This document shows positions 3,309 to 27,783 of a DNA stretch of 32,000 nt, piece after piece; position 1 is the stretch's first letter, and each line of letters begins with the position of its first letter. Made by a program: the position numbers and the translations under genes. Under the pieces are notes generated by a model that was not told the DNA's origin, ran no database searches, and saw nothing but the letters and a program-made list of their open reading frames with translations. Origin of the DNA: Cuniculiplasma divulgatum (GTDB lineage: Archaea; Thermoplasmatota; Thermoplasmata; Thermoplasmatales; Thermoplasmataceae); contig NZ_LT671858.1 in the NCBI RefSeq assembly GCF_900083515.1, positions 60,001 to 92,000 on the forward strand, written 5' to 3'.

Positions 3309-3349
3309 ATGAGGATATGCCCTTCAACACCAACAATCTAGAATACGTG

Positions 3350-3406
3350 AAAGGCAAGGACATGGAGAGCGTTGAAACAGAAATCAGGAAACGGTTAACC
3401 AAGTGA
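3350..3406 (+). repeat. 57-bp perfect direct repeat, copy 2
   Basis: Identical to 2611-2667. It is preceded by unrelated sequence that forms a 29-codon remnant ORF (ATG 3317, MPFNTNNLEYVKGKDMESVETEIRKRLTK). Confidence 0.95.
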
Positions 3407-3451
3407 TGGTTAACTTGTAACGTAAAGTTATAAAGCGTTGAAAGGTTAACA
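3393..3451. promoter_or_regulatory. second cluster of GGTTAAC(C) motifs (candidate centromere-like site)
   Basis: GGTTAACC at 3393-3400, GGTTAAC at 3408-3414 and GGTTAAC at 3444-3450, all within 58 nt. Confidence 0.35.
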
Positions 3452-3491: not shown

Positions 3492-3929
3492 ATGTCATTC
3501 TCCGGCAGATTTTCGAGATGGATCCCGTTATTAATCGTAGCGGTTGTTGACTTCTTTGTCCTCTTTTCAGTACTCTATTTTTTACCCAGTTCTTCTCCTT
3601 ATTACACGCCACTTTACTACATAGTATGGGCTCTGACCTTTGCTGCTGTAGTTCTCACTGGCAATTCCATAAGATTTAAAACAGGTTTTGGAAGAAGAGT
3701 TGTTTACAGATCAAAACCTAACTTCATTTACAGCAATATAGTTGACGATTCCGACACAGATGAATACAAGAAGAAGCTTAAGGAAGCATCCGATCTCTAC
3801 CTTCAAGGGAAAATAAGCTCCGATGAGGAATTCTTCTCAGCAATAGGCGAGCATACACCAAAGGAGGAAAGTATTTTCCGCGCTCTGAAAGTAGCACGGG
3901 AAAACTTTGGAAAAATGGGCAGGAGATAA
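3492..3929 (+). CDS. membrane protein with SHOCT-like C-terminal segment
   Basis: Two N-terminal hydrophobic helices. The C-terminal KKLKEASDLYLQGKISSDEEFFSAIGE resembles the SHOCT short C-terminal domain pattern (L..L...G.Is.eEF). Confidence 0.45.
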   Translation: MSFSGRFSRWIPLLIVAVVDFFVLFSVLYFLPSSSPYYTPLYYIVWALTFAAVVLTGNSIRFKTGFGRRVVYRSKPNFIYSNIVDDSDTDEYKKKLKEASDLYLQGKISSDEEFFSAIGEHTPKEESIFRALKVARENFGKMGRR

Positions 3930-3990
3930 TCATGCAAATGCAATACCTGCGTCTTCTGATAACTGCAGGTTCAATAAGACGGGAGAACCT

Positions 3991-4212
3991 ATGGCTCAAA
4001 AGCTAAGCCAGAGAGAATACTTCATCATTTCTACTTCTTTTGCAGCATTAGGTCTTGTTGCTTTGACAGCTGGCCTTTACTACTTTTTTGGATACGTGAG
4101 CTCAAGCTCAGTATCTAACATTGTATTCTACTCTGCTCTATGGATTGTTGGAGTATTAGTTCTCCTAAGAAGATACTCAAAACGCAGACCTTCGAAAGGC
4201 AATAACCAGTGA
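3991..4212 (+). CDS. small two-helix membrane protein
   Basis: The ATG at 3991 is preceded by GGGAG. There are two hydrophobic helices and a basic tail (RRYSKRRPSKGNNQ). The longer 3907 start would overlap the previous gene. Confidence 0.35.
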   Translation: MAQKLSQREYFIISTSFAALGLVALTAGLYYFFGYVSSSSVSNIVFYSALWIVGVLVLLRRYSKRRPSKGNNQ

Positions 4213-4299
4213 CTTCACTGTCACTAAACTTGTAATTTTAGTAACGCCACTAAACACTGGATTTTAATAACATATGCGCCCCTAAATTCTATGAATTAA

Positions 4300-4905: not shown

Positions 4906-4921
4906 TTCTCAGTGAAAGAGA

Positions 4922-4949
4922 GAGAGTCGCCGAACGCGTCGGCGCTCTT
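4922..4949 (+). terminator. GC-rich hairpin just 3' of the recombinase gene
   Basis: The stem is cgccga 4928-4933 / tcggcg 4939-4944 with loop acgcg. It is extended by gagag/ctctt with one bulge and is followed by a T/A-rich run. It could equally be a protein-binding palindrome. Confidence 0.35.
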
Positions 4950-5165
4950 CTTATATATAATATATACCTGATACAATGAACATAACATTCTAAAAAAATG
5001 GAATTTTCTTCTATTTTTCTAAAGTAAAACCAAACAAACACATCCACTCGTTTTCTGACACTCTCTCTTCTGAAATGAAAACGACTGTTCTACGACACTC
5101 AATGATTCGACTCGTTCGGAACTTTTAATAATCTTACCAGTGAATCATAAAAGTGCAGTGATCGC

Positions 5166-6251
5166 ATGGCTCTGAAAGATCCATATGCGTTCTTTGACAG
5201 CAAGGTCAAGCAGAGGGCAAAGGAAACCAGCAACATAAAGAATGCACAGCTATTCGACATGGATTTCAAGCCAAATCGCATCCTCATAAGAAAGGAACTT
5301 GACAAGGTTACCAATGACCTTGCAGACTACGTGAACCTAAACCTTCCCAGGCACATAATCATCTATGGTTCAAAGGGTTCCGGCAAGACGCTTAGTGCTT
5401 TGATCATGGCAAAGGCCCTGAAAGAGAGCAAATCTGTGCCATATTACTACATAAACGTAAGAGAGAACCCAACCTCCATAAAGATATACAGGTATCTGAC
5501 AAGGATATCCAGCAGAGGCCATGACATTGATGAAGTAAAGAACAAATTTGACTCGTTGCTGTCTGGAAAGTCAATTGTTATACTGGACGAAGTTGATTTT
5601 CTCCAGGACTATGATGTCCTATACCACATAACGAGACATACAAAAGCTAACCTTATCCTGCTGACCCAGAAAGTCTACTGGTACAAGGACATGAACGACG
5701 AGAGCGTGAAGAGTTCCCTGCAGCCTGACCACATAGTGTTCCATGAATACAACGCAGATGAGATTCGCGAGATACTGAAAATGAGGGCAGAAGAAGGTCT
5801 TAACAAATTCGACAAGGTTGCTTTAGGCCTCTTATCCGCCATGCTTGTCAGGGAGTACAGGAGCGATGCGAGGATCGGCCTCAAGGCACTGGAGATACTT
5901 GGAAGAGTTAACAAATGGACTGATGAGGCAGTCATATCAGCATTGAGGCAGGCTTATGTGGAGGTGGAGGGAGAAACTCTAAGGAATCTTGGAGACAGGG
6001 ACTTATTGATTCTGGCGTCATTGATCAAGAACCAGGACACGAATAAAGCCTATGCTGAAGTGACGAATATCAACAGCTTCCTGGTTAAGGGAATGAGCAA
6101 GTCAACATTCTTCCAGAGCGTCAACTACCTGCAGAACCTAGGTCTGGTCACGCTGATTAAGAAAAAGATTGGCCGGTACTACACAATGGAATCGCAAATT
6201 TTATTATCTGATGCGTCGATTGTATCTGTCGAATTAAGAAAAAGGCTTTGA
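5166..6251 (+). CDS. cdc6: Orc1/Cdc6-family replication initiator
   Basis: AAA+ Walker A (IIIYGSKGSGKTLSA) and Walker B (IVILDEVDFL), with a C-terminal winged-helix-like region (STFFQSVNYLQNLGLVTLIKKK). At 361 aa, the size is as expected for archaeal Orc1/Cdc6. Confidence 0.8.
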   Translation: MALKDPYAFFDSKVKQRAKETSNIKNAQLFDMDFKPNRILIRKELDKVTNDLADYVNLNLPRHIIIYGSKGSGKTLSALIMAKALKESKSVPYYYINVRENPTSIKIYRYLTRISSRGHDIDEVKNKFDSLLSGKSIVILDEVDFLQDYDVLYHITRHTKANLILLTQKVYWYKDMNDESVKSSLQPDHIVFHEYNADEIREILKMRAEEGLNKFDKVALGLLSAMLVREYRSDARIGLKALEILGRVNKWTDEAVISALRQAYVEVEGETLRNLGDRDLLILASLIKNQDTNKAYAEVTNINSFLVKGMSKSTFFQSVNYLQNLGLVTLIKKKIGRYYTMESQILLSDASIVSVELRKRL

Positions 6252-6290
6252 AGAGTTTCAATGATAACCATAAGACTATCCAGGTAATAT

Positions 6291-6720
6291 TTTGGTATCT
6301 ATCGGTAAGACTTCGGCTCAAATTCACCCCTAGCCCCTCGTTGAGCCTTCGTCAATTGCTATGTGCCCTTCGCTCGCCTGCACGCCGAGCACAGGACCCC
6401 ATGCTTCGCCTACAATCAAAATTCACCCCTAACCCCTCTTTTGATTTCCATCTCGCACTCTTCTGCGAAGAGCCCCTCATTCGCCTTGCTCATTCAGGGT
6501 GGTGTCCTGTGCTCGCCGCTCGTGGTGTATGTGTGGTGTTACACACCTTCGCTTCGCTTGGTGTTCCACACCACCCACCGCTAACGCTTACACCACTCGG
6601 TCTTGCTACGCAAGACTTCCGGCTCGCTTCGGGCACATTACTCTCTCCTGCGGAGGTCAATTTGAGGGGAACAGGGTAGGGGAATTTTTGACCGCACCAT
6701 CTCGTTGCACTCGGTGCGGG
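6291..6720 (+). ncRNA. GC-rich hairpin-dense element, copy A (candidate structured RNA; family unknown)
   Basis: GC is visibly above that of the flanks, and ORFs are open in many frames on both strands. Six perfect hairpins are present (coordinates in findings). It is homologous end-to-end to 27784-28166. The strand is inferred from one G-U pair and from TATA-like and T-run context, so it is tentative. Confidence 0.5.
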
Positions 6721-6881
6721 ATTATTGGAATATGAGAGAATTCTTCCGCTAGAACTAATCAAACAACGGAAAGCGCTATGCGAAATTCGTAATCAGATCT
6801 ATCAGGGGTCAAACAGAAAGTTGCAACCAAATTATTTTCGTTCTCTGGTTTCTCACGTGAAAAAGTAGCATTTTTCAGTTT

Positions 6882-7262
6882 TCAGTGTAATGAAGTCTGT
6901 TCGATTAAACGCAGCAGTGGAAGCAAACTCTCCCTCACATTACGGCCAAATTCAGTGAGTGAATAATTAACTCCTTCTGTTTCTTCTCTTCTCTGGATTA
7001 AATGTAAATCCTGCAACTCCTTAAGCCTACTGGAAATAATCGTTGAGCTTGAATAGGGGATGTCTCTCAGTATTTCATTGAAATTCTTCCTGTTTCCATT
7101 GTTTCCTATTACACCCAATATCATCATGGTGTATTTCTTGCCAATCAGGCTAAGAAGAGGCAGGGACGGATCAACACACACCGTAGATTCGCGATCCTCG
7201 ATCATGCAGGCCTTGTTCTTGTTTTGGAATCTCGTGCGTTCATCATTCTGGATTTTCCCCAA
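6882..7262 (-). CDS. HxlR-type winged-helix transcriptional regulator
   Basis: CVDPSLPLLSLIGKKYTMMILGVIGNNGNRKNFNEILRDIPYSSSTIISSRLKELQDLHLIQRRE matches the HxlR (DUF24) pattern. The gene is divergent from the mer genes. The track start at 7262 is TTG; the ATG at 7205 (MIEDRE...) is an equally plausible start. Confidence 0.75.
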   Translation of the reverse strand: MGKIQNDERTRFQNKNKACMIEDRESTVCVDPSLPLLSLIGKKYTMMILGVIGNNGNRKNFNEILRDIPYSSSTIISSRLKELQDLHLIQRREETEGVNYSLTEFGRNVRESLLPLLRLIEQTSLH

Positions 7263-7342
7263 TTTATATCACCCACATATCATCCAGGAAGGTTAAAAAA
7301 AGTTTACGTTTCCATATTAATATCTGCCTGCGATGTGAAATA

Positions 7343-7576
7343 ATGCCAGAAGAAAGAGTGAAGCTCAGAATATATGGAATGACGTGCGATGACTGCGTTA
7401 GGACAGTAAGCAATGGTCTCAAGAACCAGGATGGTGTCCTCGATGTAAGAATCTCCCTGAAAGACGGCACCGGAGAAGTTAATGTGGATTCGGATAAAGT
7501 AAATCCAGAGGAACTTCTTAAGAACAAGGTATTCGAAAAGCCGTCACACTACAAAGCAACTCTCATGGATCAATAA
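7343..7576 (+). CDS. heavy-metal-associated (HMA) domain metallochaperone, MerP/CopZ-like
   Basis: GMTCDDCV metal-binding motif in a 77-aa ferredoxin-like-size protein, immediately upstream of merA. Confidence 0.85.
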   Translation: MPEERVKLRIYGMTCDDCVRTVSNGLKNQDGVLDVRISLKDGTGEVNVDSDKVNPEELLKNKVFEKPSHYKATLMDQ

Positions 7577-7589
7577 AGGGGGCATAGAT

Positions 7590-9029
7590 TTGAACAGTGA
7601 TGTACAGAAATTCGATCTTGTAATACTGGGAAGAGGCGCAGCTGCATTTTCGGCCGCAATCAAGGCTTCGGAACTCAGCAATGGTGAGATGACCGTTGCC
7701 ATGATAGGCACGGGACCGCTTGGAGGTACATGCGTCAATGTGGGTTGCGTTCCATCAAAATACCTGCTTGAGGCATCTCATTCTGTCTTCAGGCCGGAAC
7801 ATCCAATGATGGCGGGTATTCACGCAACACCAGTGAAACACGACTTTTCAGAAGTAATGGAAGGCCTGAGATCATATGTTGCACACGCAAGGGATTCAAA
7901 ATATGTCCAGGTGATTGAAAACTACAGCAATGTGAATCTTTTTGACGGTCTTGGGAAATTCGTGGATAAGAAGACCGTAATGGTATCAGATTCTGAAGGA
8001 AATGATATTGCTTTAGTCTCAGGATCCAACATTCTCATCGCAACCGGATCACATCCCACCGTGCCCAACATTGAGGGGTTGAAGGAAACAGGATTCCTCA
8101 CCAGTGATACAATATGGGCACTAAAAGAACTGCCGGAGTCAGTTGCCATAATAGGTGGAGGTGCCATTGGACTTGAACTGGGACAGGCACTGCTACATTT
8201 CGGCTCAAACGTTACTGTTATAGAGGCTCTGGATTCCCTTCTTCCCCAGTCCGAACCTGAGATTGGATTTGCGCTTAAGAGCAAACTGGAGGAAGAGGGC
8301 ATGAAGTTCTACCTGAGGGCAAGAGTTAGCTCAGTAAGCTCATCAGGAAACAGAAAAACAATTCATGTAATAACACACAAGGGAGAGGAAAAAGTAGAAA
8401 TCCACGAGATCATAGTTGCAACCGGAAGACAGCCCAACACACCATATCTGAATCTCAAAGCTGCAGGTGTTGACACCGATTCCAGGGGGCAAATTGTCAC
8501 TTCCGAAACAATGAAGACATCCGCACCTGGAATTTATGCTGCAGGTGACTGTGTTTCAAAAAATATGTTTCTTGAAACTCTAGCGGCAAGGGAAGGTGTC
8601 ATAGCCCTGAGCAACATGTTCGGTGAAGACCTTAAGATCGATTACGACTCTGCAACATGGGCAGTATTTACCAGCCCACAGGTTGCAGGTGTGGGAATGA
8701 CAGAGAATGAATTCTCCCAGAAGAATGGATCGTGTTCGTGTAGGGTATTTTCCCTTGAAAATTTAACAAAGGCAAGCATAATGGGAGAAACAGAAGGTAT
8801 TATAAAGATCACCGTCGATCCAAAGGACAACAGGGTAGTGGGAATGCACATCATGGCTCCAAATGCCACAGATATAATAACAGAGGGCACATATGCTGTC
8901 AGGAACGGATACACCATTGATGATATAATCGCAACAAGCCACATATTCCCGTCATTTTCAGAGGGTGTGAAACTTGCAGCCCAGTCGTTCATCAGGGATC
9001 TGTCCAAAATGGCGTGTTGCGTGGAGTGA
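7590..9029 (+). CDS. merA: mercuric reductase (core MerA without N-terminal HMA domain)
   Basis: FAD motif DLVILGRGAAAFSAA, redox-active GGTCVNVGCVPSK, YAAGDC, and the C-terminal vicinal cysteine pair (MACCVE) that distinguishes MerA from other disulfide oxidoreductases. The TTG start at 7590 is preceded by AAAGGGGG. Confidence 0.85.
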   Translation: MNSDVQKFDLVILGRGAAAFSAAIKASELSNGEMTVAMIGTGPLGGTCVNVGCVPSKYLLEASHSVFRPEHPMMAGIHATPVKHDFSEVMEGLRSYVAHARDSKYVQVIENYSNVNLFDGLGKFVDKKTVMVSDSEGNDIALVSGSNILIATGSHPTVPNIEGLKETGFLTSDTIWALKELPESVAIIGGGAIGLELGQALLHFGSNVTVIEALDSLLPQSEPEIGFALKSKLEEEGMKFYLRARVSSVSSSGNRKTIHVITHKGEEKVEIHEIIVATGRQPNTPYLNLKAAGVDTDSRGQIVTSETMKTSAPGIYAAGDCVSKNMFLETLAAREGVIALSNMFGEDLKIDYDSATWAVFTSPQVAGVGMTENEFSQKNGSCSCRVFSLENLTKASIMGETEGIIKITVDPKDNRVVGMHIMAPNATDIITEGTYAVRNGYTIDDIIATSHIFPSFSEGVKLAAQSFIRDLSKMACCVE

Positions 9030-9034
9030 TAGAA

Positions 9035-9409
9035 ATGAAAGTGGAAGAAATAATATCAAAATTCGGATTCGACCAGACAGTTGAGTTTCTTGAGAGATCT
9101 GTAGATGAGAATGGCCTGAAGACCGTATCAGTAATAAATGCTCAGGCAAATTTGAGGAAAATTGGTGTTGAGACAGGTGGAAACAAAATTCTGGAAGTTT
9201 TCCACCCAAAGCTTGCCAAGGAAGTTTTCGACAGCGATCTGAGAGCGGGCATAGTTCCGCCCTTGAGAATTTACATATACGAAGAAAATGGCACAACCCA
9301 TGTAGAAACGCAGAATGCGGCGGAACTTTTCTCCGAGTTCAACGGACTGGAGGAACTTGGCAGAAAAGTAGACGGAATGCTAAATTCTGTGATCAAATCT
9401 GTCAAATAA
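9035..9409 (+). CDS. DUF302-domain protein
   Basis: The ATG lies 5 nt after the merA stop. FDQTVEFLERSVDENGLKTVSVINAQ...ILEVFHPKLAKEVF...PPLRIYIYEENG fits the DUF302 pattern. The family call is from memory. Confidence 0.65.
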   Translation: MKVEEIISKFGFDQTVEFLERSVDENGLKTVSVINAQANLRKIGVETGGNKILEVFHPKLAKEVFDSDLRAGIVPPLRIYIYEENGTTHVETQNAAELFSEFNGLEELGRKVDGMLNSVIKSVK

Positions 9410-9810
9410 TGCATTTATGGGAAATAAGATAATGGAGTGAAGAGACACGAATGGCTCCAAATGCCATTTTATCAATTATATTTCTCAATAGATAAGGAAT
9501 CTGATGGATTACAGTACTCAAAAGCACTTAAGGTTTTCAAGAATCATTACTTAGAGTTGATTCTGCTAATCAATGCCTCTAACACGACGAATGGTGAGAG
9601 TTCTAAAGTGATAAGCATAGCTGTCCTAATTTCCCCATCTGGGTCATGATACTAAAACTGCACAACAATTTTTCACAGATCTTTAATTGCTATACATTAT
9701 GAACAGTCATGATGCAATTCCTTTGCATTGTGATAAGGGAACTTTTAAGATTTCTCAACCATTCTTTCATTATGTAGGAAAAGGTTTTCTACGCCATTGT
9801 TTCCGCGATA

Positions 9811-10419
9811 GTGATTATAGGAGGAGTGGGGATTGGTGTTGCTTATGACCATCAGGTCGCTGTCAGCAGCAGCCATATGAGTAATCAGCAGATTGGTGGC
9901 ACATATCACCTTGACTTGGTAGAAGTCATGGACGCAAACTACAACAGTTCGATCGGGGCACAACCCAGATACTATGAGGTTGTGAATGGCTCTCTTCAGT
10001 CCCCTTCCAATATCACGCTGCCTACACACACCAAGATAACTGTCACCATCACTTCTTACGATATGGGTAATGCCTCTGTACCATCGCAGTATTTGACAGC
10101 CAGTGGAATACAGAATGACAAGGTTCTTGCAATAAACGGCACAACGGCAATGGGAAGCAATACTTCAAAGTCATGGTCAACTAATATGACATCATTCCCC
10201 GCATCAAAAGTGTTGCATACTTTTACCATCTTACAAGGATCAAGCATCATTGTTAACATTCCTGTAATGGCAGGATATACTGAAATCGCATCATTTTATC
10301 TTAACAGCACCGGAAGCATGACCTGGCAATGCGAGGCTGCTTGTGGCACAGGATCATCAGGATGGGAGGGTGCAATGTCCACTGCCGGCTGGATGACAGG
10401 AACAGTTTATGCCCAATAA
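9811..10419 (+). CDS. membrane-anchored cupredoxin-like protein with CuA-like Cx3C motif
   Basis: The protein has an N-terminal hydrophobic anchor and many N-x-S/T sequons. HTFTIL ... WQCEAACGTGSSGWEGAM resembles a CuA-type H...CxxxCG...M site but lacks the second His. GTG start; the in-frame hydrophobic sequence continues upstream to a stop at 9775, so the true start is uncertain. Confidence 0.4.
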   Translation: MIIGGVGIGVAYDHQVAVSSSHMSNQQIGGTYHLDLVEVMDANYNSSIGAQPRYYEVVNGSLQSPSNITLPTHTKITVTITSYDMGNASVPSQYLTASGIQNDKVLAINGTTAMGSNTSKSWSTNMTSFPASKVLHTFTILQGSSIIVNIPVMAGYTEIASFYLNSTGSMTWQCEAACGTGSSGWEGAMSTAGWMTGTVYAQ

Positions 10420-10439
10420 ATGATAGAGTATATCGATCT

Positions 10440-11000
10440 ATGAGAAGGAGCAAAGATTCTGCATTTCCAGCATCCGGGGATCCACAGGGCATAAGACGGC
10501 TTATATTCTACGGTATCTCCCTGATGCTCTCTCTCCTTATCATAGTCATCTCGATAACATTTTTTGTGGTTGTTGTTTACCTTGAGGGCAGGGTAACTGA
10601 AGATTTTTTCTACCTTTTTACAGGAATTATTACCGTTAACCTTGTAATTTCAGCACTTTCCGTTAAAGGATTGATGACTCTCTATCCCATATTACAACCT
10701 AAAAATGGAGAATTCAGAACTATGATCTTATCAAGGTCAGATGAGATGCGCTCATCTGGTGACACCACTTCAATGACTAGAAAGAACTCGGAATACTTTA
10801 CAAACTTAGAGCTTGAAGTGATAGAACTTATAAGAAATAATGGAAATAAAATGCTTCAAAGCAAGATAGTAACCACAATAGAAGCATCGAAGGCATCAAT
10901 TTCCAGAACGCTTACATCTTTAGAGAACAAAGGAGTGGTTGTGAGGATGAGAAAGGGAGTAACAAATGAAGTAATCCTCATTGAAACCTATTCCAATTAG
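10440..11000 (+). CDS. membrane-anchored winged-helix (MarR/TrmB-like) DNA-binding protein
   Basis: The ATG at 10440 avoids overlap with the preceding gene. Two hydrophobic helices are followed by LELEVIELIRNNGNKMLQSKIVTTIEASKASISRTLTSLENKGVVVR, a wHTH pattern. Confidence 0.55.
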   Translation: MRRSKDSAFPASGDPQGIRRLIFYGISLMLSLLIIVISITFFVVVVYLEGRVTEDFFYLFTGIITVNLVISALSVKGLMTLYPILQPKNGEFRTMILSRSDEMRSSGDTTSMTRKNSEYFTNLELEVIELIRNNGNKMLQSKIVTTIEASKASISRTLTSLENKGVVVRMRKGVTNEVILIETYSN

Positions 11001-11056
11001 TTCCGTGAAACATGTTTCAACCTAAACTTAAGTGCCTTTTCATCATATATAACTTC

Positions 11057-11416
11057 ATGGAAAAAAGAGTTGAAAACCTGATATGGATTCTTGTAGCACT
11101 TGTGTCGGTGGTTGCTGCAGTTGCAATAATTATCTCCATACTGTTTGGAGGCAACTACTATAATGGAACCTATGGGCCCTTTGGTATGATGGGTGGCTTC
11201 TATGGAATGGGGATATTAATGCCGATCATTGGCGTCATTTCGGTAATCTTGGCAATAGTGTTCATTTATTTCATCTTTGAAGCAGTTCAAACTCCAGAAT
11301 CGTACAGACCTGTTGAGAAAGCCGCAAATGCAGAGGAGATAGCGAAAGAAAGGTTCGCAAAGGGAGAGATTTCTGAAGAAGAATACCGCCAAATAATTGA
11401 AACTATAAGGAGGTGA
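11057..11416 (+). CDS. SHOCT-domain membrane protein
   Basis: Two hydrophobic helices, then EEIAKERFAKGEISEEEYRQIIETI (SHOCT pattern). An alternative ATG at 11012 adds 15 atypical residues. Confidence 0.6.
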   Translation: MEKRVENLIWILVALVSVVAAVAIIISILFGGNYYNGTYGPFGMMGGFYGMGILMPIIGVISVILAIVFIYFIFEAVQTPESYRPVEKAANAEEIAKERFAKGEISEEEYRQIIETIRR

Positions 11417-11424
11417 AAATTAGT

Positions 11425-12015
11425 ATGAACACGCATAAAACCATTGGAATTGCGGCGGGTGCCTTCCTTGCTGCTGTTCTTGTATTTTCGGCTTTCTATT
11501 ACTACGGCGGATATAATACATCTAGCGGTTCCCAGTACCTAACGCAGTCACAGCTTGAAAGTCTGAATGTAACTGAGCAGGGAGTTTACGTTTCACACGT
11601 GAATTCAACTGTTTACATAAACAGTTCCACCAGTTTGCTTGTGATGGCTGGTCCAATGAACGCGCCGAGCATGTACAGCTTCGAGATACAGGGTTTGTTC
11701 AACCCAACAATAGTAATTAAAGAAGGAGTGACCATTAACTTCACAGTTGTAAATATAGATACCGACTCTGAACACAATTTTGTGTTGAGCAGCCAGGGAC
11801 CGCCATATTCGTACATGAATGGCATGGGCTCCATGGGCTCGGGAGGATATGACTCTATGACGTCTATGAGTTTTCTTCCACCAACAAATTCTGGTCACTT
11901 CTATTATTACAATGTCAGCTACGGTTTTTCACAAACCGGAACTTACTGGTACCTGTGTACCTATCCAGGGCACGCCGAAAACGGGATGTACGGAAAAATA
12001 GTCGTAGAACGGTAA
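11425..12015 (+). CDS. sulfocyanin-like type-1 blue copper protein (cupredoxin)
   Basis: The C-terminal YWYLCTYPGHAENGMYG is a type-1 Cu site (C-x2-P-G-H-x4-M), with an upstream His in SEHNFVL and an N-terminal membrane anchor. The ATG at 11425 is preceded by AGGAGGTGA. Confidence 0.7.
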   Translation: MNTHKTIGIAAGAFLAAVLVFSAFYYYGGYNTSSGSQYLTQSQLESLNVTEQGVYVSHVNSTVYINSSTSLLVMAGPMNAPSMYSFEIQGLFNPTIVIKEGVTINFTVVNIDTDSEHNFVLSSQGPPYSYMNGMGSMGSGGYDSMTSMSFLPPTNSGHFYYYNVSYGFSQTGTYWYLCTYPGHAENGMYGKIVVER

Positions 12016-12289
12016 TTAATCTGGCGGTAGCAATACTGCCTACCTAAATTTTCTCACTAAGAAGTAAGGTAAACTCCATCACTTTATGGCAAATTGCTGG
12101 GATGTCCAGGAAAATAAATGAGTGTCTTGAGTTCATTATCAAAAATAACTCAAAGGATAACAATTACCATAGTTGACAATAAAACCATCCTGATGGTTTA
12201 CTGCCTTACCTGAATAAATTCACACACAGAAATTCTCGCGCATGCATTTTAGACCATATGATAACTAATCCCTGCACTAAAAGACTGGT

Positions 12290-12325
12290 GCTCCAGAAGC
12301 AGTCTTTCCTGCTTAACTCTGGAGC
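12290..12325 (-). terminator. extended hairpin immediately 3' of the DUF302 gene
   Basis: The outer stem is gctccaga 12290-12297 / tctggagc 12318-12325 and the inner stem is agcag 12298-12302 / ctgct 12309-12313. It lies 12 nt beyond the stop of the minus-strand gene. Confidence 0.4.
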
Positions 12326-12336
12326 CTATTCAACGA

Positions 12337-12729
12337 TTATATAAATGAGTCCACAATGGTTTTGAGTTTGGTCTCAACCTCATCCAGAAAGGCCGCATTC
12401 TGTTCCGTCTTATCTGTTTTAAGAGTTCGGAAAATTTCTGCAGGCAGTTGAGCAGATATTTCCGTACCACCTTCCACTGATTTCGCTATTAGATGGCATG
12501 GAATGAGTGTCTCTACCCTATTGTCTAAGGAAAGAGCCTCATGTGCATATTTAGCATTGCAAATATCAAAGGTTCTGAGATTTGGATATTCAAACCCCTT
12601 TGACCTCAGTATGTCACTTGTCCTGATCTCAGATAATATTGAGAAACCATTTAGAGGCACTACCTCTCTTATCTTATCGCACACCTCGTCGAAGGAACGT
12701 TCTGATTTAACTCTGTATTCAGTTGCCAT
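12337..12729 (-). CDS. DUF302-domain protein (second copy in window)
   Basis: SFDEVCDKIREVVPLNGFSILSEI...FDICNAKYAHEAL...LIPCHLIAKSVEGG fits the DUF302 pattern. It is a diverged paralog of 9035..9409. Confidence 0.6.
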   Translation of the reverse strand: MATEYRVKSERSFDEVCDKIREVVPLNGFSILSEIRTSDILRSKGFEYPNLRTFDICNAKYAHEALSLDNRVETLIPCHLIAKSVEGGTEISAQLPAEIFRTLKTDKTEQNAAFLDEVETKLKTIVDSFI

Positions 12730-12733
12730 TTCT

Positions 12734-12925
12734 TCACCTGGATAAAATTTGTTTCTTCATGCTTAAATATTCTTCCTTCTCGATTTCTCCCCTTGCATAT
12801 CTCTCGTTCAATATGCCAATTGCAGTTTTAGTTTCATTCACTGTGGGGTTTTCCTCACTGCCGTGACTGTGCATATGGTGCTTTCCCATATCATTTCCTG
12901 CATTCTTCATACATCCGCAAGACAT
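12734..12925 (-). CDS. small Cys/His-rich protein with SHOCT domain
   Basis: The N-terminus MSCGCMKNAGNDMGKHHMHSHGSEE is rich in metal-ligand residues. The C-terminus LNERYARGEIEKEEYLSMKKQIL matches the SHOCT pattern. The stop lies 4 nt upstream of the DUF302 gene start, suggesting an operon. Confidence 0.6.
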   Translation of the reverse strand: MSCGCMKNAGNDMGKHHMHSHGSEENPTVNETKTAIGILNERYARGEIEKEEYLSMKKQILSR

Positions 12926-13013
12926 ACTTACGAAATCATGTGAAGAGATAAAACAATATCCTATTCAATTTGTAATTTATGATGACTGAAAACATACATA
13001 ATGATAAGAGGTA

Positions 13014-13427
13014 TCAATAGGTTAGCGAGAATCCTTTCACGGTCAGACTTCCAAATCGTCCTTTCCTGATGGAAATGTCTTGCCTGCCCTTATCTATGGC
13101 TCGCCACACAGCTTTGCTGATGACAAACGTGAACTTCTCAGTTTTAATAATTTCATATGAGGATGAGTCATTGATGCTGTCAAGAATTCCTGCACTGATT
13201 TTAGCTTCCAATTGGCACATATTATCGGGGCACGGGCCCTTTTCCTGCACCAAATCCAGGACAAGAAATTTTCCTTCTGCAGCCTTTACTACTCCTTTTC
13301 CCGATTCGACTTTCCCCTTTCCAACAGATATTAATTCTGGAGTGTTGGAATTCTTGACCGACGGGTCATTATCAACCGCACCAGGTGTCGAATGCCTCCC
13401 GGTAGTGAAATCTCCTCTCCCACTCAT
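13014..13427 (-). CDS. hypothetical protein (137 aa) with CPDNMC motif
   Basis: Clean ORF with protein-like composition. It has a low-complexity N-terminus and then a probable globular domain containing C-x4-C. No family is recognised. Confidence 0.4.
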   Translation of the reverse strand: MSGRGDFTTGRHSTPGAVDNDPSVKNSNTPELISVGKGKVESGKGVVKAAEGKFLVLDLVQEKGPCPDNMCQLEAKISAGILDSINDSSSYEIIKTEKFTFVISKAVWRAIDKGRQDISIRKGRFGSLTVKGFSLTY

Positions 13428-13571
13428 AGATAATTATAATTCTTCTCAGTTATTTATAATATAACTGTCCAAACTGTCCAGAACGCTCCAATTTACTAAA
13501 CACTATGAGAACAATTTGAGTAGAATGCTTCCATGCCCTTTTCCACATGTTTTGGTTCGTATATGCTAATG

Positions 13572-14099
13572 TCAGTTTTCCTCCATAATTAACTCTCCTC
13601 TTTTCTTAAGATCTCTTTCACAGTTCGGACAGCACACGTAATATGTCTTTCCCCTTATTTCAACTGAGATCGGATTATCTTTGATCTCCTTTCTACAGTA
13701 ATCGCAGTGGAGGTTTTCTGCCCTGTTCATGTTTTCATACGATTCCCTGGAAGTGGCAATTTCAACTCTTTTTATGTTGGCCCCCTTTATCTTTATGAGG
13801 TCCTCATAGTAGAGGATCACCATGTAGGTTCCGTCTATTAGAGAGAAACGCTCCAGGATGATATTCCCCGGTATATTATCTAAATTGTCAGTGTATATGA
13901 GAACCATATCCTTTTCTTCATCTGCAATGGAGATGGTGAATTTCTTGATCCTTCCGCTTGATATGATTGAATCCATGGCCTTCTTGGCTGTAAGCCTGCT
14001 GGTCCCCAGTTCACTTGCTATGTCCACTATGCTCATCCTGGAATTTCTCCTGAGCAATAATATGAGTCTCTGTTCCAGTTCAGAAAGATTTCTTCTCAT
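13572..14099 (-). CDS. Lrp/AsnC-type HTH regulator with C-terminal TRASH domain (archaeal CopR/CopT-like copper regulator)
   Basis: N-terminal LSELEQRLILLLRRNSRMSIVDIASELGTSRLTAKK (Lrp-type HTH). C-terminal CDYCRKEI...YYVCCPNC (TRASH-type C-x2-C...C-x3-C, with an extra Cys). Divergent from the cop genes. Confidence 0.75.
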   Translation of the reverse strand: MRRNLSELEQRLILLLRRNSRMSIVDIASELGTSRLTAKKAMDSIISSGRIKKFTISIADEEKDMVLIYTDNLDNIPGNIILERFSLIDGTYMVILYYEDLIKIKGANIKRVEIATSRESYENMNRAENLHCDYCRKEIKDNPISVEIRGKTYYVCCPNCERDLKKRGELIMEEN

Positions 14100-14174
14100 A
14101 ATGTAATGATTTTACTCAACTACTTTAACATTATGCATAAGGATAATATTTGTATCGCAACACAATTCATAACC

Positions 14175-14315
14175 ATGGCAACAGATGTAATATGCGGAAT
14201 GAAAGTGAAGGAGAGCACTGACCTGAAGAGTGAGTTCCAGGGAAAAACATTCTACTTCTGCAGCAGCCACTGCAAGTCAGAATTTGACAAGAACCCCCTG
14301 AAATACAGCAGGTAA
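14175..14315 (+). CDS. TRASH/YHS-domain small metallochaperone (CopM-like)
   Basis: MATDVICGMKVKESTDLKSEFQGKTFYFCSSHCKSEF is a YHS/TRASH motif. The ATG at 14175 is chosen because the 14106 start would leave only 6 nt for the divergent promoters. Confidence 0.65.
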   Translation: MATDVICGMKVKESTDLKSEFQGKTFYFCSSHCKSEFDKNPLKYSR

Positions 14316-14326
14316 GGAGAATATAA

Positions 14327-16435
14327 ATGCCAACCGATCCTGTATGTGGAATGTTTGTACCGGAGGATACCGATCTGACGTCGGTAGTCGACGGTCAAAC
14401 ATACTATTTTTGTTCAAAAACCTGCCAGCAGAAGTACAGCTCACCTGAAAAAGAAGCGATCCGCTTAAAAAGACGACTTGCTCTTGGGTGGGGCCTAGCG
14501 ATACCAATCATAATCATAAACTACCTCGTTCCAGGAAACCTTTTTCTTGGACAGGCATACAAGGATATTGCCCTATTTATACTAACTCTTCCGGTTCAAT
14601 TTTACTCAGGCTACGGATTCTATGAAGGAGCATATCATGCCATCAAGAGCAGATCCGGAAACATGGATCTTTTGATCTCGATGGGAACACTGACTGCATT
14701 CATATTCTCAAGCTATGTTACCTTCTTTCCGGGAAGAATACCTGCCGCAGACGTCTACTTTGACGCATCCGCATTCATCATCACACTCATACTCACGGGC
14801 AACTTCATTGAGAACTTGACAAAGGTCCGTGCCAACAGGGCCGCAAGTAAGCTTCTGGAGCTTATCCCAAATGTTTCACACGTGATCACAGAAGATGGAA
14901 AGGAAGTTGACACACCAACAGACGAACTCAGGGAAGGCGACATTATACTTATCAGGCCGGGCGAATCCATCCCTGCAGATGGGATGGTCTTCGACGGTTC
15001 AGCTGAAGTGGATGAATCCATGCTCACTGGAGAACAGGAACCGGTATTGAAAAAGAAAGACGATATGGTTTCATCTGGCACTTCCAACCTCAATGGCGTC
15101 CTTAAGATAAGTGTTACAAGAACGGGAAAGAACAGCACCGTCAGCCAGATATATGAACTGATCCAGAGGGCAATTTCAGGCAGGGCAAAGGTGCAGAGAA
15201 TTGCAGACGTATTTTCAGCAATATTTGTTCCTGTGGTGATTGCTGCAGCCCTGGCTTCAGGACTCTTCTGGTATTTCTACCTCAACAGCACAGGTTTTGC
15301 CCTTCCACTGGAAATTGCAGTTCTGGCATTTGTCTCAGTTGTAGTCATAGCCTGCCCGTGCGCCATCGGGCTTGCCGGACCAATCACATTACTCATATCC
15401 TCGAATTACGCATCCGAGAATGGTATAATTATAAAGAATACCAGCGCTCTTGACAGGCTGTCAAAGGTCAATATGGCTGTATTCGACAAGACTGGCACAC
15501 TCACGGAGCCAGATCCGGCCATTACAGACATCCTCCCAGAAAAAGAGTGGTCAAAAGAAGAAGTGCTGCATATGGCAGCATCTGTTGAGAGATCTTCCAA
15601 CCATCCCATAGCCAAGGCCATAATAAAGGAGGCTGGAAAAGCCTCAATTTCGATCGATGAGGCACAGGAGGTCAAAGAGATACCTGGTATGGGGATATCG
15701 GGCACTGTTAATGGCAGGGAGGTAAAAATAACTAGGGCCAGTCGTGCAGGAGGATCTGTGGTATCCGTTTACGTTGATGAGGTAGGTATAGGTGACATAA
15801 CGCTTGCATACACCGTCAGGGAGAGTGCAGTTGAAACCGTCAAAGAGCTCAAAAAGCTTGGCATAAGGACTGCCATGGTATCGGGGGACTCGAAATCCGA
15901 GGCCGAAAGGGTTGCCAATATTCTTGGAATCGATGATATCCACGCGGAGGTTCTTCCGGAGAACAAATCAGAAATTATCAAGGAATACCAGATGAAAGGA
16001 GACTTCGTCATGTTTACAGGAGACGGGATCAATGACACTGTGGCACTTGAAACAGCGGACGTTGGAATTGCAATGGGTTCAGGTACGGATATAGCAAGGG
16101 AAAGCGGTGACATTATACTCATTAACAACGACCTGAGACAGCTCATACTGACTAGGATTATAGGAACCAAGACAATTTCAAAGATAAAGCAGAACATTGG
16201 GTGGGCTGTGGGTTACAACACGCTGCTGATGCCAATTGCCGGCGGAGTGCTGGTCCCATTCCTCGGGCTGTCTGTCTTCTCTGTTCTTCCAATACTTGCT
16301 GCATTTGCAATGGGCATGAGTTCATCATCTGTGGTGATAAACTCCCTGATGCTTAGAAAAAAAATTAGAAATGAATGGAAAAGAAGTGACTTCCGCCTGT
16401 ATTCTAAGTCGGCGCAGCCTCATCTTTCACAGTGA
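14327..16435 (+). CDS. copA: copper-translocating P1B-type ATPase with N-terminal YHS/TRASH domain
   Basis: N-terminal DPVCGMFV...YYFCSKTCQQKY; transmembrane CPC (VVIACPCAIGLAGP); DKTGTLT; SNHPIAKAI; MVSGDSK; TGDGINDT; YN...P and MSSSSV in the last helices. Confidence 0.9.
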   Translation: MPTDPVCGMFVPEDTDLTSVVDGQTYYFCSKTCQQKYSSPEKEAIRLKRRLALGWGLAIPIIIINYLVPGNLFLGQAYKDIALFILTLPVQFYSGYGFYEGAYHAIKSRSGNMDLLISMGTLTAFIFSSYVTFFPGRIPAADVYFDASAFIITLILTGNFIENLTKVRANRAASKLLELIPNVSHVITEDGKEVDTPTDELREGDIILIRPGESIPADGMVFDGSAEVDESMLTGEQEPVLKKKDDMVSSGTSNLNGVLKISVTRTGKNSTVSQIYELIQRAISGRAKVQRIADVFSAIFVPVVIAAALASGLFWYFYLNSTGFALPLEIAVLAFVSVVVIACPCAIGLAGPITLLISSNYASENGIIIKNTSALDRLSKVNMAVFDKTGTLTEPDPAITDILPEKEWSKEEVLHMAASVERSSNHPIAKAIIKEAGKASISIDEAQEVKEIPGMGISGTVNGREVKITRASRAGGSVVSVYVDEVGIGDITLAYTVRESAVETVKELKKLGIRTAMVSGDSKSEAERVANILGIDDIHAEVLPENKSEIIKEYQMKGDFVMFTGDGINDTVALETADVGIAMGSGTDIARESGDIILINNDLRQLILTRIIGTKTISKIKQNIGWAVGYNTLLMPIAGGVLVPFLGLSVFSVLPILAAFAMGMSSSSVVINSLMLRKKIRNEWKRSDFRLYSKSAQPHLSQ

Positions 16436-16488
16436 AAAATGGGTTAAATAAACAAACATTATACCTTCTATTTTACTGGAACACACAT

Positions 16489-17307
16489 TTACAGGCCACC
16501 AAAAAACCATGCAATTATTATTCCTGCGGCTAGCGCTAAAATTGATATAGATGCCATTATCGATATGATCCCTCTGCTGGGATATACTTCTTTCATGTGG
16601 TGCATATCTGTATGTTTGTTTATCATACTTTCTGAATCGTGTGTTTTAGGTCTGACAGTCATCATGCCGTGCTTAAGGTGATTTGATACCAGCCACCAGT
16701 TCATTGGGTAAGCCATCCCTAAGCCTCCCAAGAGAGCCATGGAGAATATAAACCAGAACACCACTCCTAACGGGTTATGACCTCCAGGAATGTTTGCCAG
16801 GGAAATGGTTGAAATGGGAATCATTGCAGTCATCAGAAGATTCATGGAGAGCAGTTCTGGTATAAAAGTCGAAGCTAAGGAACGCTTGTAAGAACCACCT
16901 GCCATGTCACGCATGAACAATGACTGGAATATCGCCCATCCAAAAAGGAAACCCATGGAATATTCAATAGCCACGTCGACAAATGGAGAAAAGTGTATTA
17001 CAGAACCAATTACCGCGCCCACTAATATTCCTATGCCGTCTCCCGCAACGCAATGTATAGTAGACCCAAGTACCTGTCTCCACCTTGCAGAAACGTAGCG
17101 TTCATGTAGACCAGGTAGAGGCTCTCTGCAACCTACCACATACAGGAAGGCACCTATGACTCCAGCATACGCTGTCACCAAGACAAATCCCAGTTTAAGG
17201 ATTGGATTCTCTGGAGTGGAACGTATATCCAAGATTACGAAAATCAGGAAAGGGATTGTAAGCGCAAACCAAAGCAACATCACTCCTTCAAGAATTGAGG
17301 TGTACAT
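16489..17307 (-). CDS. polytopic membrane protein, DUF4396-like
   Basis: Multiple hydrophobic helices. STIHCVAGDGIGILVG resembles the conserved HC..G motif of DUF4396 proteins (from memory). The ATG at 17307 is preferred over the TTG at 17316. Convergent with copA. Confidence 0.5.
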   Translation of the reverse strand: MYTSILEGVMLLWFALTIPFLIFVILDIRSTPENPILKLGFVLVTAYAGVIGAFLYVVGCREPLPGLHERYVSARWRQVLGSTIHCVAGDGIGILVGAVIGSVIHFSPFVDVAIEYSMGFLFGWAIFQSLFMRDMAGGSYKRSLASTFIPELLSMNLLMTAMIPISTISLANIPGGHNPLGVVFWFIFSMALLGGLGMAYPMNWWLVSNHLKHGMMTVRPKTHDSESMINKHTDMHHMKEVYPSRGIISIMASISILALAAGIIIAWFFGGL

Positions 17308-18287
17308 TTCACACAACTTCTTCTAAGTCTTGTGATATTATGTTAGACTATGTAGTTCTTATCTCTTTTCTGAGACAGTGGTTGAGACGTACCTCATTTC
17401 TTTTATCACCAGCCAAAGAACCCAATATGTTGAGGTCTCAGAAGTTGTAGGACGCCGTAAGCTACCATACAGAAGGTAACAAATGCTTTGTTTTCACCAC
17501 AAAATGAATTTACATTGGTTTTATGAGAATTCATAGTATTCGCTTAAAACATTAAGCGAATCCCGACCGGTCCATTCTGAATTTTTCAGTTAAATGAGAA
17601 AATCTCAAAATCATTCCTAAGTTTATTGTCCTTTGCTTATTCAAGAAATTTAGAGATTTTAACTCTGCATCTTTGTGCCTCCTCCAACAATTCTTCATGG
17701 ACATTAAAGTTTAGTTTCCCTTGAATGTGCATGCATACGTTCAAAAAAGAATTAAATGATACAATGTTGAACAGAGACTTGTACCATTTCTTTGTTGGCA
17801 TATTTCCAATGGCTGTAAATCATACTTTCTTTGTCCCACTCTTTCCGTACAAACAAATTTATAATTATTCTTAATATCTCAATTTCTAATCCTGATATTG
17901 CTGGCCAAACTGCTAAACTCAATACCACACAATAAAAATATCTGTATGTCTAAGAACGTGTATACTTCTCTGACAATGGAATAGGAATTATGAGGTTTCA
18001 GTATTTTGAATATGGAATATAGATACTCAAATCACCAAATTGTTAATTGGAAATAACCTCTGCAATGTATTTCCTCGTACACCAAATTTCCTACTATAGT
18101 GAATTTAAAGTTGTTTAACAAACTAGACGAATCTAAATGTATCAGGTCTACATTGTCCGATCTATTGATAAATGAAAGAGAGAGGTTAGGAAGACAGAAT
18201 TAAGATCGCATTCTCCTAGTTAAAACATCCAATACAAATTAACTTTTCTTTTTAATGAAACATTTCTTAGAGCAAGTCACATCTATT

Positions 18288-19538: not shown

Positions 19539-19783
19539 ATATATTATAAGTGCTGACTGTATAAAATTGTTTCTGTAATAAATTGTGCAAACTTTGTTAA
19601 TTTATTATTCAAAAGGAAGATTTAAAAAAAATGTTGAATATTTTTATAATAACATCTTTGTTTTTTTCCAGCCCTGAAGATAAATTTTTTAAACAGTCAA
19701 TCTAACATTTTCCTTCATCTATAAAGATAGGAAAAAATTATATGGACTAGACGGTTATTAATTTCAATTATTAAGGGAGTTTA

Positions 19784-24942: not shown

Positions 24943-25159
24943 ATGAACTAAAAAGTGGAACTTGCCTAATCTTTTGCAAAGGAACTCTCCAGAAGGAATA
25001 TTGTTAAAAAGGACCGGCTTGAGCACATTAGTGAGAGAATAGAACAAGAGTGTCAATTCTTCAAGCCCCATAAGAGGCAACTTGCATGGATTGTGATAAC
25101 TGAGAATAGGTCATTTTAGAGAATAGGGTAACGCAGGAGCTATTGCACACAAAAATGGT

Positions 25160-25300
25160 GCTATAAAGTATTATAGAGTTCCTTCAAGAACTTGCTCGCA
25201 TCCCTAACTCAGTCATTCTTTTGTTCTCCTTCGAAATGACTTCATTCGCTCTATTCATTCCTGGATTGATAGGTAAAAATTTATTATTATATATAAGTTA
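25160..25300 (-). pseudogene. decayed paralog of the small antitoxin-like gene at 27573..27749
   Basis: Hand alignment of the minus strand gives INPGMNRANEVISKEN vs IEALENEYVMDQLERSE, then after a frameshift and stop VRDASKFLKEL vs VRNVREFMKEL. The N-terminal ~25 codons are missing. Flanking non-coding sequence is also similar. Confidence 0.4.
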
Positions 25301-25579
25301 ATATAATAGAGTTTTTCACCATTCAGATTGGAGGTAGGCTTTGTTTTTGATCATGAAATAATCGCATACCAGAGTTCACGTCTCAAATCTATGTTCAGTA
25401 TTTCTGATCTGATCGTAAACGTAAATGTCATGTAAAAATTTTGTATTCCTTATTACCTGAAAAGAGCGTTCATAATTTGTTTTGTTACAATTAGATTAAG
25501 ATTAAAAACTGGAACGTGGTAATCTATTTATGGCATAAAATTATAAATGATATTATATTATATATTTAGGCATCAGATT

Positions 25580-27415: not shown

Positions 27416-27572
27416 TAATGAATCCTTTAATTATTTTAACGGCAAGCTAGCTACAGTAAATAATTCATTTCTAAATTCTGATGCTTCTATAGATCTGAAA
27501 TGAAATAAATGAAGAGCAGAAGAAAGTAACGCTCAGAGCAACCCTTCACAAAGATGAAGCAAAGAAATATTA

Positions 27573-27749: not shown

Positions 27750-27783
27750 AATATAACTCTATATTCTTTCAGATTTTAATATC

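Follow-up and report, generated by a model that had tools for sequence, protein, structure and literature searches.

A conserved, structured non-coding element of Orc1/Cdc6-type plasmids in Thermoplasmatales: a candidate gene for a large archaeal RNA

In their study of the 7.6-kilobase (kb) plasmid pPO1 of Picrophilus oshimae, Angelov et al. (2011) noted a region, IG2, for its deviant G+C content, its lack of Tn5 insertions and its possible secondary structure, and left it unexplained, giving no function, structure or relatives for it (PMC3177234). The same work proposed that replication likely starts in IG1, an AT-rich, repeat-rich region that precedes cdc6, and found neither single-stranded intermediates nor an encoded rolling-circle (RC) Rep protein (PMC3177234). 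Here we analyse a stretch of 32,000 nucleotides (nt) of Cuniculiplasma divulgatum DNA (contig NZ_LT671858.1, positions 60,001 to 92,000 of the forward strand; hereafter the window) that holds two copies, A and B, of a non-coding element homologous to IG2. IG2 shares with this element the loops of hairpins H1 and H2, the nested helices and the place after cdc6 and restriction-modification genes; it lacks the domain of helices Hc and He, the most conserved part of the copy in the window. We lean, by a modest degree, towards the view that the element encodes a large structured non-coding RNA (ncRNA) and belongs to the backbone of Thermoplasmatales plasmids of the Orc1/Cdc6 type and of their integrated derivatives. 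In the literature we found no description of such an RNA beyond the 2011 remark on IG2, and no connection with the element could be made for a transfer-messenger RNA ("tmRNA") reported in G-plasma and a plasmid (bioRxiv 10.1101/538918).

Four better-known systems offer comparisons. ROOL, GOLLD and OLE are large ornate ncRNAs of bacterial mobile elements and extremophiles, and they resemble the element in their size of about 0.5 kb, their many helices and conserved single-stranded motifs, their carriage by mobile elements or extremophiles and their unknown function (PMC12286853, PMC5737381). Unlike them, the element has an archaeal host and a predicted RNA, and it shows no sequence or covariance-model similarity to them; the family is previously undescribed, has no Rfam model and resembles the large ornate bacterial RNAs in kind only. 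The RNA II/RNA I system, which controls the replication of ColE1, consists of a transcript of about 0.5 kb with stem-loops and interacting G-rich and C-rich segments, with the gene for Rop, a small helical protein, nearby. The element likewise has a predicted folded transcript of about 0.5 kb with G-rich and C-rich segments and a small helical protein gene nearby, but its plasmids have a protein initiator, it lies away from the candidate origin, and its neighbour of 58 amino acids (aa) is YefM-like and not Rop. A ColE1-type incompatibility determinant is unlikely because the element is nearly identical between co-resident elements. Single-strand origins of the ssoA type, found on rolling-circle plasmids, are long, orientation-specific, imperfectly palindromic and non-coding with conserved loop motifs, all of which is true of the element, whereas no sequence similarity links the two and pPO1 has neither single-stranded intermediates nor an RC Rep (PMC3177234). 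Archaeal Orc1/Cdc6 origins with origin recognition boxes (ORB), lastly, share with the element an association with orc1 and repeated G/C-string boxes, one of them inverted; the element differs in being GC-rich, in having no unwinding element and a variable box spacer, and in usually lying kilobases from orc1.

Copy A sets in about 40-60 nt downstream of the stop codon, at 6251, of an initiator gene:
Positions 5166 to 6251, plus strand: plasmid-type orc1/cdc6 initiator gene, with AAA_22 and TIGR02928 matches, syntenic at the element's loci.
Positions 6302 to 6736, plus strand: element copy A, intact through hairpin Hg, with homology to genome and metagenome loci spanning 6289-6736.

An earlier reading of this DNA made from its letters and open reading frames (ORFs), which we call the sequence-only reading, had pointed to a switch to GC-rich DNA just after orc1/cdc6, and the G+C fraction bears this out, at 0.557 in 6301-6600 compared to 0.40-0.49 in flanking 300-nt windows, with a C-rich plus strand. 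The RNA minimum free energy (MFE) of 6305-6725 is -152.2 kcal/mol on the plus strand, against -120.4 +/- 5.8 in dinucleotide shuffles (z = -5.4; 0 of 100 shuffles folded as well), and the minus strand has z = -5.7. The Rfam comparison proposed in that reading matched no family: the Rfam 15 covariance models gave 0 matches at gathering score across the whole window, and E-value mode gave chance-level matches only (E >= 0.3, far under gathering) for copy A and one full-length homologue. ARAGORN detected no transfer RNA (tRNA) and no tmRNA. Elsewhere in the window the conserved core has no complementary target; only copies A and B match it.

We built an 88-pair model of the fold comprising H1, Ha, Hb, H2, H3, Hc, Hd, He, Hf, Hg and a 3' hairpin, and scored it on 36 sequences; the percentages below are alignment cells paired in that set. 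All the perfect hairpins listed in the sequence-only reading are present at their coordinates, He extending to 6599-6606/6610-6617, and its two near-identical C-rich loops (recovered as repeat D10) and its G-rich segment at 6664-6689 are there as well. The short hairpin ccgg/tcgg that it placed at 6619-6632 also exists, but competes with the better supported long-range helix Ha. In copy A coordinates the parts are as follows:
Positions 6285 to 6293, plus strand: TATA-like AT-rich box, about 22-30 nt ahead of H1, read directly; weak evidence within AT-rich DNA.
Positions 6315 to 6347, plus strand: hairpin H1, stem GGCTCAA/TTGAGCC (6315-6321/6341-6347), loop TTCACCCC-TAG-CCCCTC; 96% paired.
Positions 6361 to 6368, plus strand: 5' arm of long-range helix Ha (ATGTGCCC), partner 6631-6638; 99% paired.
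Positions 6383 to 6397, plus strand: 5' arm of long-range helix Hb, partner 6504-6518; 98% paired.
Positions 6414 to 6446, plus strand: hairpin H2, stem AATCAAAA/TTTTGATT (6414-6421/6439-6446), loop TTCACCCC-TAA-CCCCTC, repeat D10; 98% paired.
Positions 6458 to 6472, plus strand: hairpin H3, CTCTTC/GAAGAG (6458-6463/6467-6472); 97% paired, one pair with a compensatory change.
Positions 6504 to 6518, plus strand: 3' arm of Hb, partner 6383-6397.
Positions 6522 to 6598, plus strand: nested helices Hc and Hd, GTGGTGT/ACACCAC enclosing CCACCGCTAACGCTTACACCAC, the most conserved stretch.
Positions 6599 to 6617, plus strand: hairpin He, GGTCTTGC/GCAAGACT; 99% paired.
Positions 6631 to 6638, plus strand: 3' arm of Ha (GGGCACAT), partner 6361-6368.
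Positions 6643 to 6657, plus strand: hairpin Hf, CTCC-TGC-GGAG; two pairs exchange together (U-A to C-G and C-G to U-A) in 10 sequences.
Positions 6664 to 6689, plus strand: G-tract segment, GAGGGG..GGG..GGGGAATTTTT, complementary to the C-rich loops; read directly, its length differing between copies.
Positions 6692 to 6719, plus strand: hairpin Hg, CCGCAC/GTGCGG, with 6 of 7 pairs conserved and the seventh (6692-6698/6713-6719) unique to copy A; 83% paired.

Overall, the model pairs 96.3% of cells, compared to 34-49% when partners are slid by 1-3 columns. Within the main family, double changes occur in six pairs (25 cells), a count reached in 0 of 500 shuffles, and RNAalifold recovers the same core.

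Homologues were sought by searching an exact 19-mer from the core CCACCGCTAACGCTTACACCAC region in one-genome-per-species contigs and a gapped pattern in metagenomes. The 19-mer was found in 28 places, of which 26 are true homologues; these 26 all come from genomes or metagenome-assembled genomes (MAGs) of Thermoplasmatales or Thermoplasmata, among them I-plasma, E-plasma and Thermogymnomonas, besides a complete genome that holds two copies. In these 26 Thermoplasmatales loci the core 19-mer is exact. The gapped pattern added about 22 metagenome loci, for about 50 homologues in all. These are 76-97% identical to the window or canonical copy over about 430-570 nt, and the element is better conserved than the orc1 DNA at the same loci, which is merely 72-78% identical. 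It is a discrete unit with two sharp ends, a core of about 400 nt and full-length copies of up to about 570 nt: the 5' homology edge falls about 8 nt before GGCTCAAATTC regardless of upstream context, and full-length copies run about 130 nt past window position 6736, through a hairpin GTGCCGTGC...GCACGGCAC and a terminal CCTTTT-loop-AAAAGG hairpin, before diverging sharply. Neither PLSDB plasmids nor INPHARED phages matched at blastn sensitivity (pPO1 was found later by profile), and exact-pattern scans of IMG/VR found nothing.

Conservation is uneven along the element, and its length variation follows the fold. Where copies differ by an indel, a hairpin tip is lengthened, and the inserted sequence itself forms a small hairpin in which U-A pairs are exchanged for C-G; the 25-nt indel, for instance, is Hd, a tip extension of the GTGGTGT/ACACCAC hairpin. 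In H1 the loop varies as TTCACCCC, then TA, GACTTTCAGCCA, GACCTGAAGGCCA or a longer stretch, then CCCCTC, with inserts of 2-40 nt, and the H2 loop has an optional insert GTCTTGCTNNCGCAATCCA.

A protein-coding gene was also considered and rejected. Homologues differ by indels (25 nt, 10-19 nt and 1-2 nt long) that break every reading frame, the length of the ORFs over the element changes from copy to copy, between 23 and about 145 aa, and there is no clear codon periodicity: variable columns are about even across codon phases, even if in two short blocks one phase has the higher sum of substitutions. The ORFs overlapping the element have no Pfam or other family match, in line with the sequence-only reading, which took the mutually overlapping ORFs here as a sign of non-coding DNA.

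Two divergent lineages were reached with a profile (nhmmer). In pPO1 it matches at 3713-3915 (E = 7e-10), with a weak match at 3987-4110, and in the metagenomic element L072 the match has E = 2e-6. The Cdc6 of pPO1 is 42.8% identical to the window protein and the Orc1 of L072 54%; the pPO1 version of the element also occurs on three pPO1-like contigs that are 95-98% identical. As a MAFFT alignment of the three lineages is reliable at H1 only, helices were compared across lineages arm by arm:
H1 stem: main family GGCTCAAA/TTTGAGCC; pPO1 ATGCACGAA/TTCGTGCAT; L072 CTCGTTCTCAAA/TTTGAGAACGAG, extended to 12 base pairs (bp).
H2 stem: main family AATCAAAA/TTTTGATT; pPO1 GTAAAAAAA/TTTTTTTAC, with the same loop; absent from L072.
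Hb: main family CGAGCACAGGAC/GTCCTGTGCTCG; pPO1 GTGAGCAGACGACAC/GTGTCGTCTGCTCAC (15 bp); L072 CGACGAGCAGAG/CTCTGCTCGTCG (12 bp).
Ha: main family ATGTGCCC/GGGCACAT; pPO1 CCCGCC/GGCGGG; not assigned in L072, whose MFE fold pairs GGCGAG…CUCGCC at this position.
Hc: main family GTGGTGT/ACACCAC; absent from pPO1; L072 GGGGTGGTG/CACCACCCC, keeping the GTGGTG/CACCAC core.
He: main family GGTCTTGC/GCAAGACT; absent from pPO1; L072 GGTCTGCCCC/GGGGCAGACT.

Helices H1, H2, Ha, Hb and He are therefore replaced by other complementary sequences in pPO1, L072 or both. Independent MFE folds of pPO1 and L072 recover the shared helices, with plus-strand z of -11.7 and -13.7 and minus-strand z of -10.4 and -10.9, respectively. 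The H1 loop, TTCACCCC...CCCCTC, is common to all three lineages (with a 40-nt insert in L072), while the CCACCGCTAACGCTTACACCAC stretch is missing from both pPO1 and L072, the latter of which retains Hc. The nested helix architecture is largely kept via compensatory change across the three lineages, and structure conserved in this way is the general mark of a structured ncRNA. Hairpins with C-rich loops and downstream G4 tracts also occur in matching numbers (two versus two or three in the main family, two versus two in pPO1 and one versus one in L072), which would fit a contact between loops and G-rich strand; the G-tract region aligns poorly, and its one informative variant, L025, is without loop-tract compensation.

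The surroundings of the element are as regular as its fold. About 45 loci have their genes in one and the same order and orientation, the synteny count covering loci with recovered upstream flank (about 40 of the 49 listed). The backbone runs from ParA, a small partner gene and a resolvase (serine recombinase) gene through orc1, a restriction-modification or defence slot and often a toxin-antitoxin pair to the element, followed by variable cargo. The slot holds type III-like Mod/Res, other restriction endonucleases (REases) or Dcm/Vsr, and between slot and element there is often a ParE/RelE toxin gene (plus strand) convergent with the 58-aa YefM-like antitoxin gene (minus strand), which adjoins the element in more than 20 loci. 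Cargo genes after the element encode DUF302/cupredoxin proteins, AAA_15/OLD ATPases, DndB-like and Schlafen-like proteins and metal resistance; one cargo protein without a Pfam match looks Argonaute-like by eye. The order in pPO1 is the same (cdc6, methylase, REase, element). Canonical copies lie 0.6-5.4 kb from orc1, and the position of copy A, abutting orc1, is a local rearrangement. As a separate observation, L072 carries the same 370-aa Orc1 gene twice, 9 kb apart on one contig (1550-2662 and 10802-11914), in both cases with a small ORF and a methylase gene after it, which suggests tandem integrated elements.

In pPO1 the element occupies 3720-4100, opposite the putative origin IG1 on the circle, and published RACE (rapid amplification of cDNA ends) sequences could be placed on the plasmid record on either side of it: the REase mRNA starts at 3492 (minus strand) and the ATPase mRNA at 4528 (plus strand) (PMC3177234). 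A leader or riboswitch of a flanking gene was rejected, as these mRNA starts lie outside 3720-4100 and the neighbours differ between loci. The RefSeq starts of the genes that flank IG2 in NC_016049.1 (2926-3708 and 4263-6239) disagree with the RACE data (ATG at 3450 and 4602), and with the RACE-supported ATGs the non-coding region becomes about 1.1 kb instead of 0.55 kb. This region also holds a second G-rich block and direct repeats at 4160-4215.

We consider it quite likely that the element acts as RNA rather than DNA, because its helices are nested over 90-280 nt, its hairpin tips expand, its stems change compensatorily and its loops are invariant; helix spans of that length would suit a transcript better than transient single-stranded DNA. 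Given an RNA, the plus strand is the likelier of the two. It is favoured because AT-rich boxes precede H1 (at -35 to -15 from it in most unrelated upstream contexts, and as a canonical box, TTTTAATA, with some 24 nt to H1 on one side and to the antitoxin ATG on the other), because pPO1 has an orphan AT-rich box (TTTATATTTATATT) about 20 nt ahead of H1 that is used by no mapped mRNA, and because the plus-strand z is the stronger in two of three lineages. Transcription would thus proceed rightward from an AT-rich box about 20-25 nt before H1, which in the canonical arrangement would be common to the element and the divergent antitoxin gene. The RNA would fold into a closed multi-helix domain (Ha, Hb) with inner hairpins, ending in 3' hairpins and displaying one or two identical C-rich loops, UUCACCCC-N-CCCCUC, on which the downstream G4 tracts may dock, within one molecule or between molecules; oligomerisation through C-loops and G-tracts is speculation. 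The folded RNA would act in plasmid maintenance or establishment, being neither an origin nor a neighbour's leader, and this role appears most likely because the element is kept together with replication, resolution and addiction functions while its surroundings are exchanged; it may serve there as a protein scaffold, an oligomerising RNA or a regulator. Whether it founds a new class of large structured RNAs (about 0.4-0.6 kb), specific to Orc1-type plasmids and integrated elements of extremely acidophilic Thermoplasmatales, in which C4-N-C4 loops contact G4 tracts and which plasmids need for maintenance or establishment, seems to us evenly balanced.

Several observations weigh against an RNA of this kind. 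Covariation is sparse within the main family, because the sequence is so conserved. G-U pairs make up about 2% of paired cells, and A-C mismatches are as frequent as G-U among variants; such near-purely Watson-Crick pairing makes no choice between strands and fits both strands or single-stranded DNA equally, so that the single G-U pair by which the sequence-only reading had hoped to fix the strand does not do so. The promoter argument concerns AT-rich boxes inside AT-rich DNA, and there is no clear conserved oligo-T terminator at the 3' end of the element. Lastly, related Orc1 elements without a restriction-modification slot have no element in the retrieved DNA, so it is not required by every such plasmid.

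The strongest competing explanation, to which we give a clearly smaller yet appreciable probability, is that the element functions not as RNA but as a structured DNA site, folded as a single strand or as a cruciform, in fork arrest or termination, in lagging-strand priming or as a serine recombinase site. The Watson-Crick character of the helices and the equal folding of both strands would suit it, as would the resolvase gene in the backbone, the element's place at the border between two variable gene slots and the two direct copies flanking 21.5 kb of cargo in the window. But nested helices of 90-280 nt would demand that several hundred nucleotides be single-stranded together, and no single-stranded intermediates were found in pPO1 (PMC3177234); serine resolvases use short duplex sites, usually beside their own gene; and some 400 nt of near-invariant sequence far exceeds the known sites of such kind. 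The place of the pPO1 element opposite IG1 (PMC3177234) also speaks for a DNA site, although larger relatives, whose cargo varies, cannot keep this arrangement.

A structured leader or antisense RNA on the minus strand, controlling the adjacent nuclease, toxin or antitoxin gene, is improbable. A minus-strand gene does start 12-52 nt from the H1 side (the pPO1 REase as annotated, the L072 Vsr and the canonical antitoxin), and this strand folds as well as the plus strand. Yet the mapped REase mRNA of pPO1 starts at 3492, well outside the element (PMC3177234), nothing promoter-like is conserved past the right end, and about a dozen main-family loci have a plus-strand gene on the H1 side, to which such an RNA would be antisense and no longer a sense leader.

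We regard it as very improbable that the plasmid starts replication at the element or that its boxes are ORB-type sites bound by Orc1. Copy A does adjoin orc1, the element co-occurs with plasmid-type orc1, and there are three related C/G-rich boxes, one inverted. But the G+C fraction is 0.557 and no AT-rich stretch for unwinding is present, related Orc1 elements exist without the element, and its distance from orc1 is typically 0.6-5.4 kb. The C-tracts within a box, moreover, stand 2-40 nt apart between copies and so lack a fixed geometry; ORB boxes are unsupported because a hairpin loop can absorb such variation in spacing and a duplex protein site cannot. Upstream of orc1, by contrast, lies an AT-rich region flanked by inverted repeats, in the place that IG1 has in pPO1 (PMC3177234):
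Positions 4916 to 5069, no strand assigned: AT-rich stretch between 24-nt inverted repeats that are 75% complementary, with a 106-nt AT-rich interior.

This stretch is the better candidate for the replication origin; short direct repeats, GTTTTCTGACACTC and GTTCTACGACACTC, lie near it. The sequence-only reading had left the choice between a novel structured RNA and an origin-type element, and the first half of that proposal is supported by the absence of an Rfam match, the roughly 50 loci and an architecture that outlasts the replacement of its helices, while the origin half is not.

A MITE-like (miniature inverted-repeat transposable element) non-autonomous mobile element, or a recently spread functionless repeat, can be set aside as the least probable of all, since its attractions (ends like imperfect inverted repeats, with a 5' C-box and a 3' G-box, several copies per genome and a sharp 5' boundary) are outweighed by invariant synteny and orientation with copies never dispersed (about 40 of 49 listed loci with flank; target duplications were not searched systematically), by conservation that is uneven and runs about 150 nt past the 3' "repeat", and by divergent lineages that keep structure and not sequence.

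The element has a second, decayed representative in the window, beside what remains of the usual toxin-antitoxin pair:
Positions 27505 to 27576, plus strand: relic of a ParE/RelE-family toxin gene, its last approximately 23 codons, convergent with the antitoxin gene; from translation.
Positions 27573 to 27749, minus strand: YefM/Phd-like antitoxin gene, 58 aa, intact, the usual divergent neighbour of the element.
Positions 27773 to 27781, no strand assigned: palindromic, TATA-like box (ATTTTAATA) some 24 nt from the antitoxin gene on one side and from copy B on the other, conserved in canonical loci.
Positions 27798 to 28165, plus strand: element copy B, decayed and 3'-truncated, in the canonical context; from alignment to copy A.

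Copy B is 78% identical to copy A overall and 93% in the core (6559-6668 / 28027-28136), and its folding excess is gone (z = -0.3 and -0.8 on the two strands). Its neighbours match those at loci L034 and L053. Copy A belongs to another subfamily than copy B, being 94-97% identical to L013 and L023, and the final ~110 nt of the canonical form of about 570 nt are diverged or missing in it; the two are direct copies on either side of the 21.5 kb cargo.

The 58-aa antitoxin is 100% identical to a Cuniculiplasma divulgatum protein, for which source databases give the names RelB or Phd/YefM antitoxin. Searches of Pfam, NCBIfam, PADLOC and PDB sequences gave no significant match for it, and its assignment as an antitoxin is based on those names together with the adjacent ParE toxin. 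An intact 88-aa toxin gene, matching Pfam ParE_toxin, is present at L004 (5174-5440). The toxin relic and the antitoxin gene in the window converge with both stop codons within one common CTAG, and the 58-aa protein covers just the C-terminal, toxin-binding part of YefM-type proteins. On the Thermoplasma acidophilum chromosome (L066, AL139299.1), an element relic of about 120 nt at 5900-6025 lies beside homologous antitoxin and convergent ParE toxin genes; here the promoter region is joined straight to the core CACCGCTGACGCTTACACC, about 250 nt between them having been cleanly deleted.

The window is most likely a mosaic island within the Cuniculiplasma divulgatum chromosome. Drops in G+C to about 0.25-0.35 in 17400-19800 and 25200-29900, against about 0.42 elsewhere, indicate a mosaic of segments with different histories. 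Between the two copies, 6882-17316 forms a metal-resistance cargo block with genes for an HxlR regulator, a small HMA-domain ORF (from 7344), a MerA-like reductase (7590-9029), a cupredoxin, DUF302, a TRASH-domain regulator, a CopA-type P-type ATPase (14327-16435) and DUF4396; at L011 the same metal genes follow the element in reversed order and orientation. A defence block at 19784-27415 encodes a type III-like methylase (789 aa), a BPTD_3080-family restriction enzyme (929 aa) and an AAA_15/OLD-type ATPase (622 aa) whose best PADLOC matches are AriA, GajA and PtuA. Towards the left end, the 90-aa gene after ParA (1640-2395) has its 3' end duplicated as an 89-nt direct repeat (2600-2688 and 3339-3427, 87% identical), which may be a remnant of a partition site or of a gene duplication.

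To our knowledge, few large structured ncRNAs are known in archaea beyond ribosomal RNA, RNase P RNA and signal recognition particle (SRP) RNA, and none as part of a plasmid backbone. If the element is indeed an RNA gene, its product would be among the very few large non-ribosomal archaeal RNAs and the first tied to archaeal plasmids. It is widespread in acid-mine and solfataric Thermoplasmatales, under constraint stronger than that on the plasmid's own initiator gene. Its presence in the small plasmid pPO1 makes the function of IG2, unexplained since 2011, directly testable, and the role of that region matters for building vectors for Picrophilus and Thermoplasma. The C-tract loops may behave in a special way at the low cytoplasmic pH of these acidophiles, an attractive side aspect.

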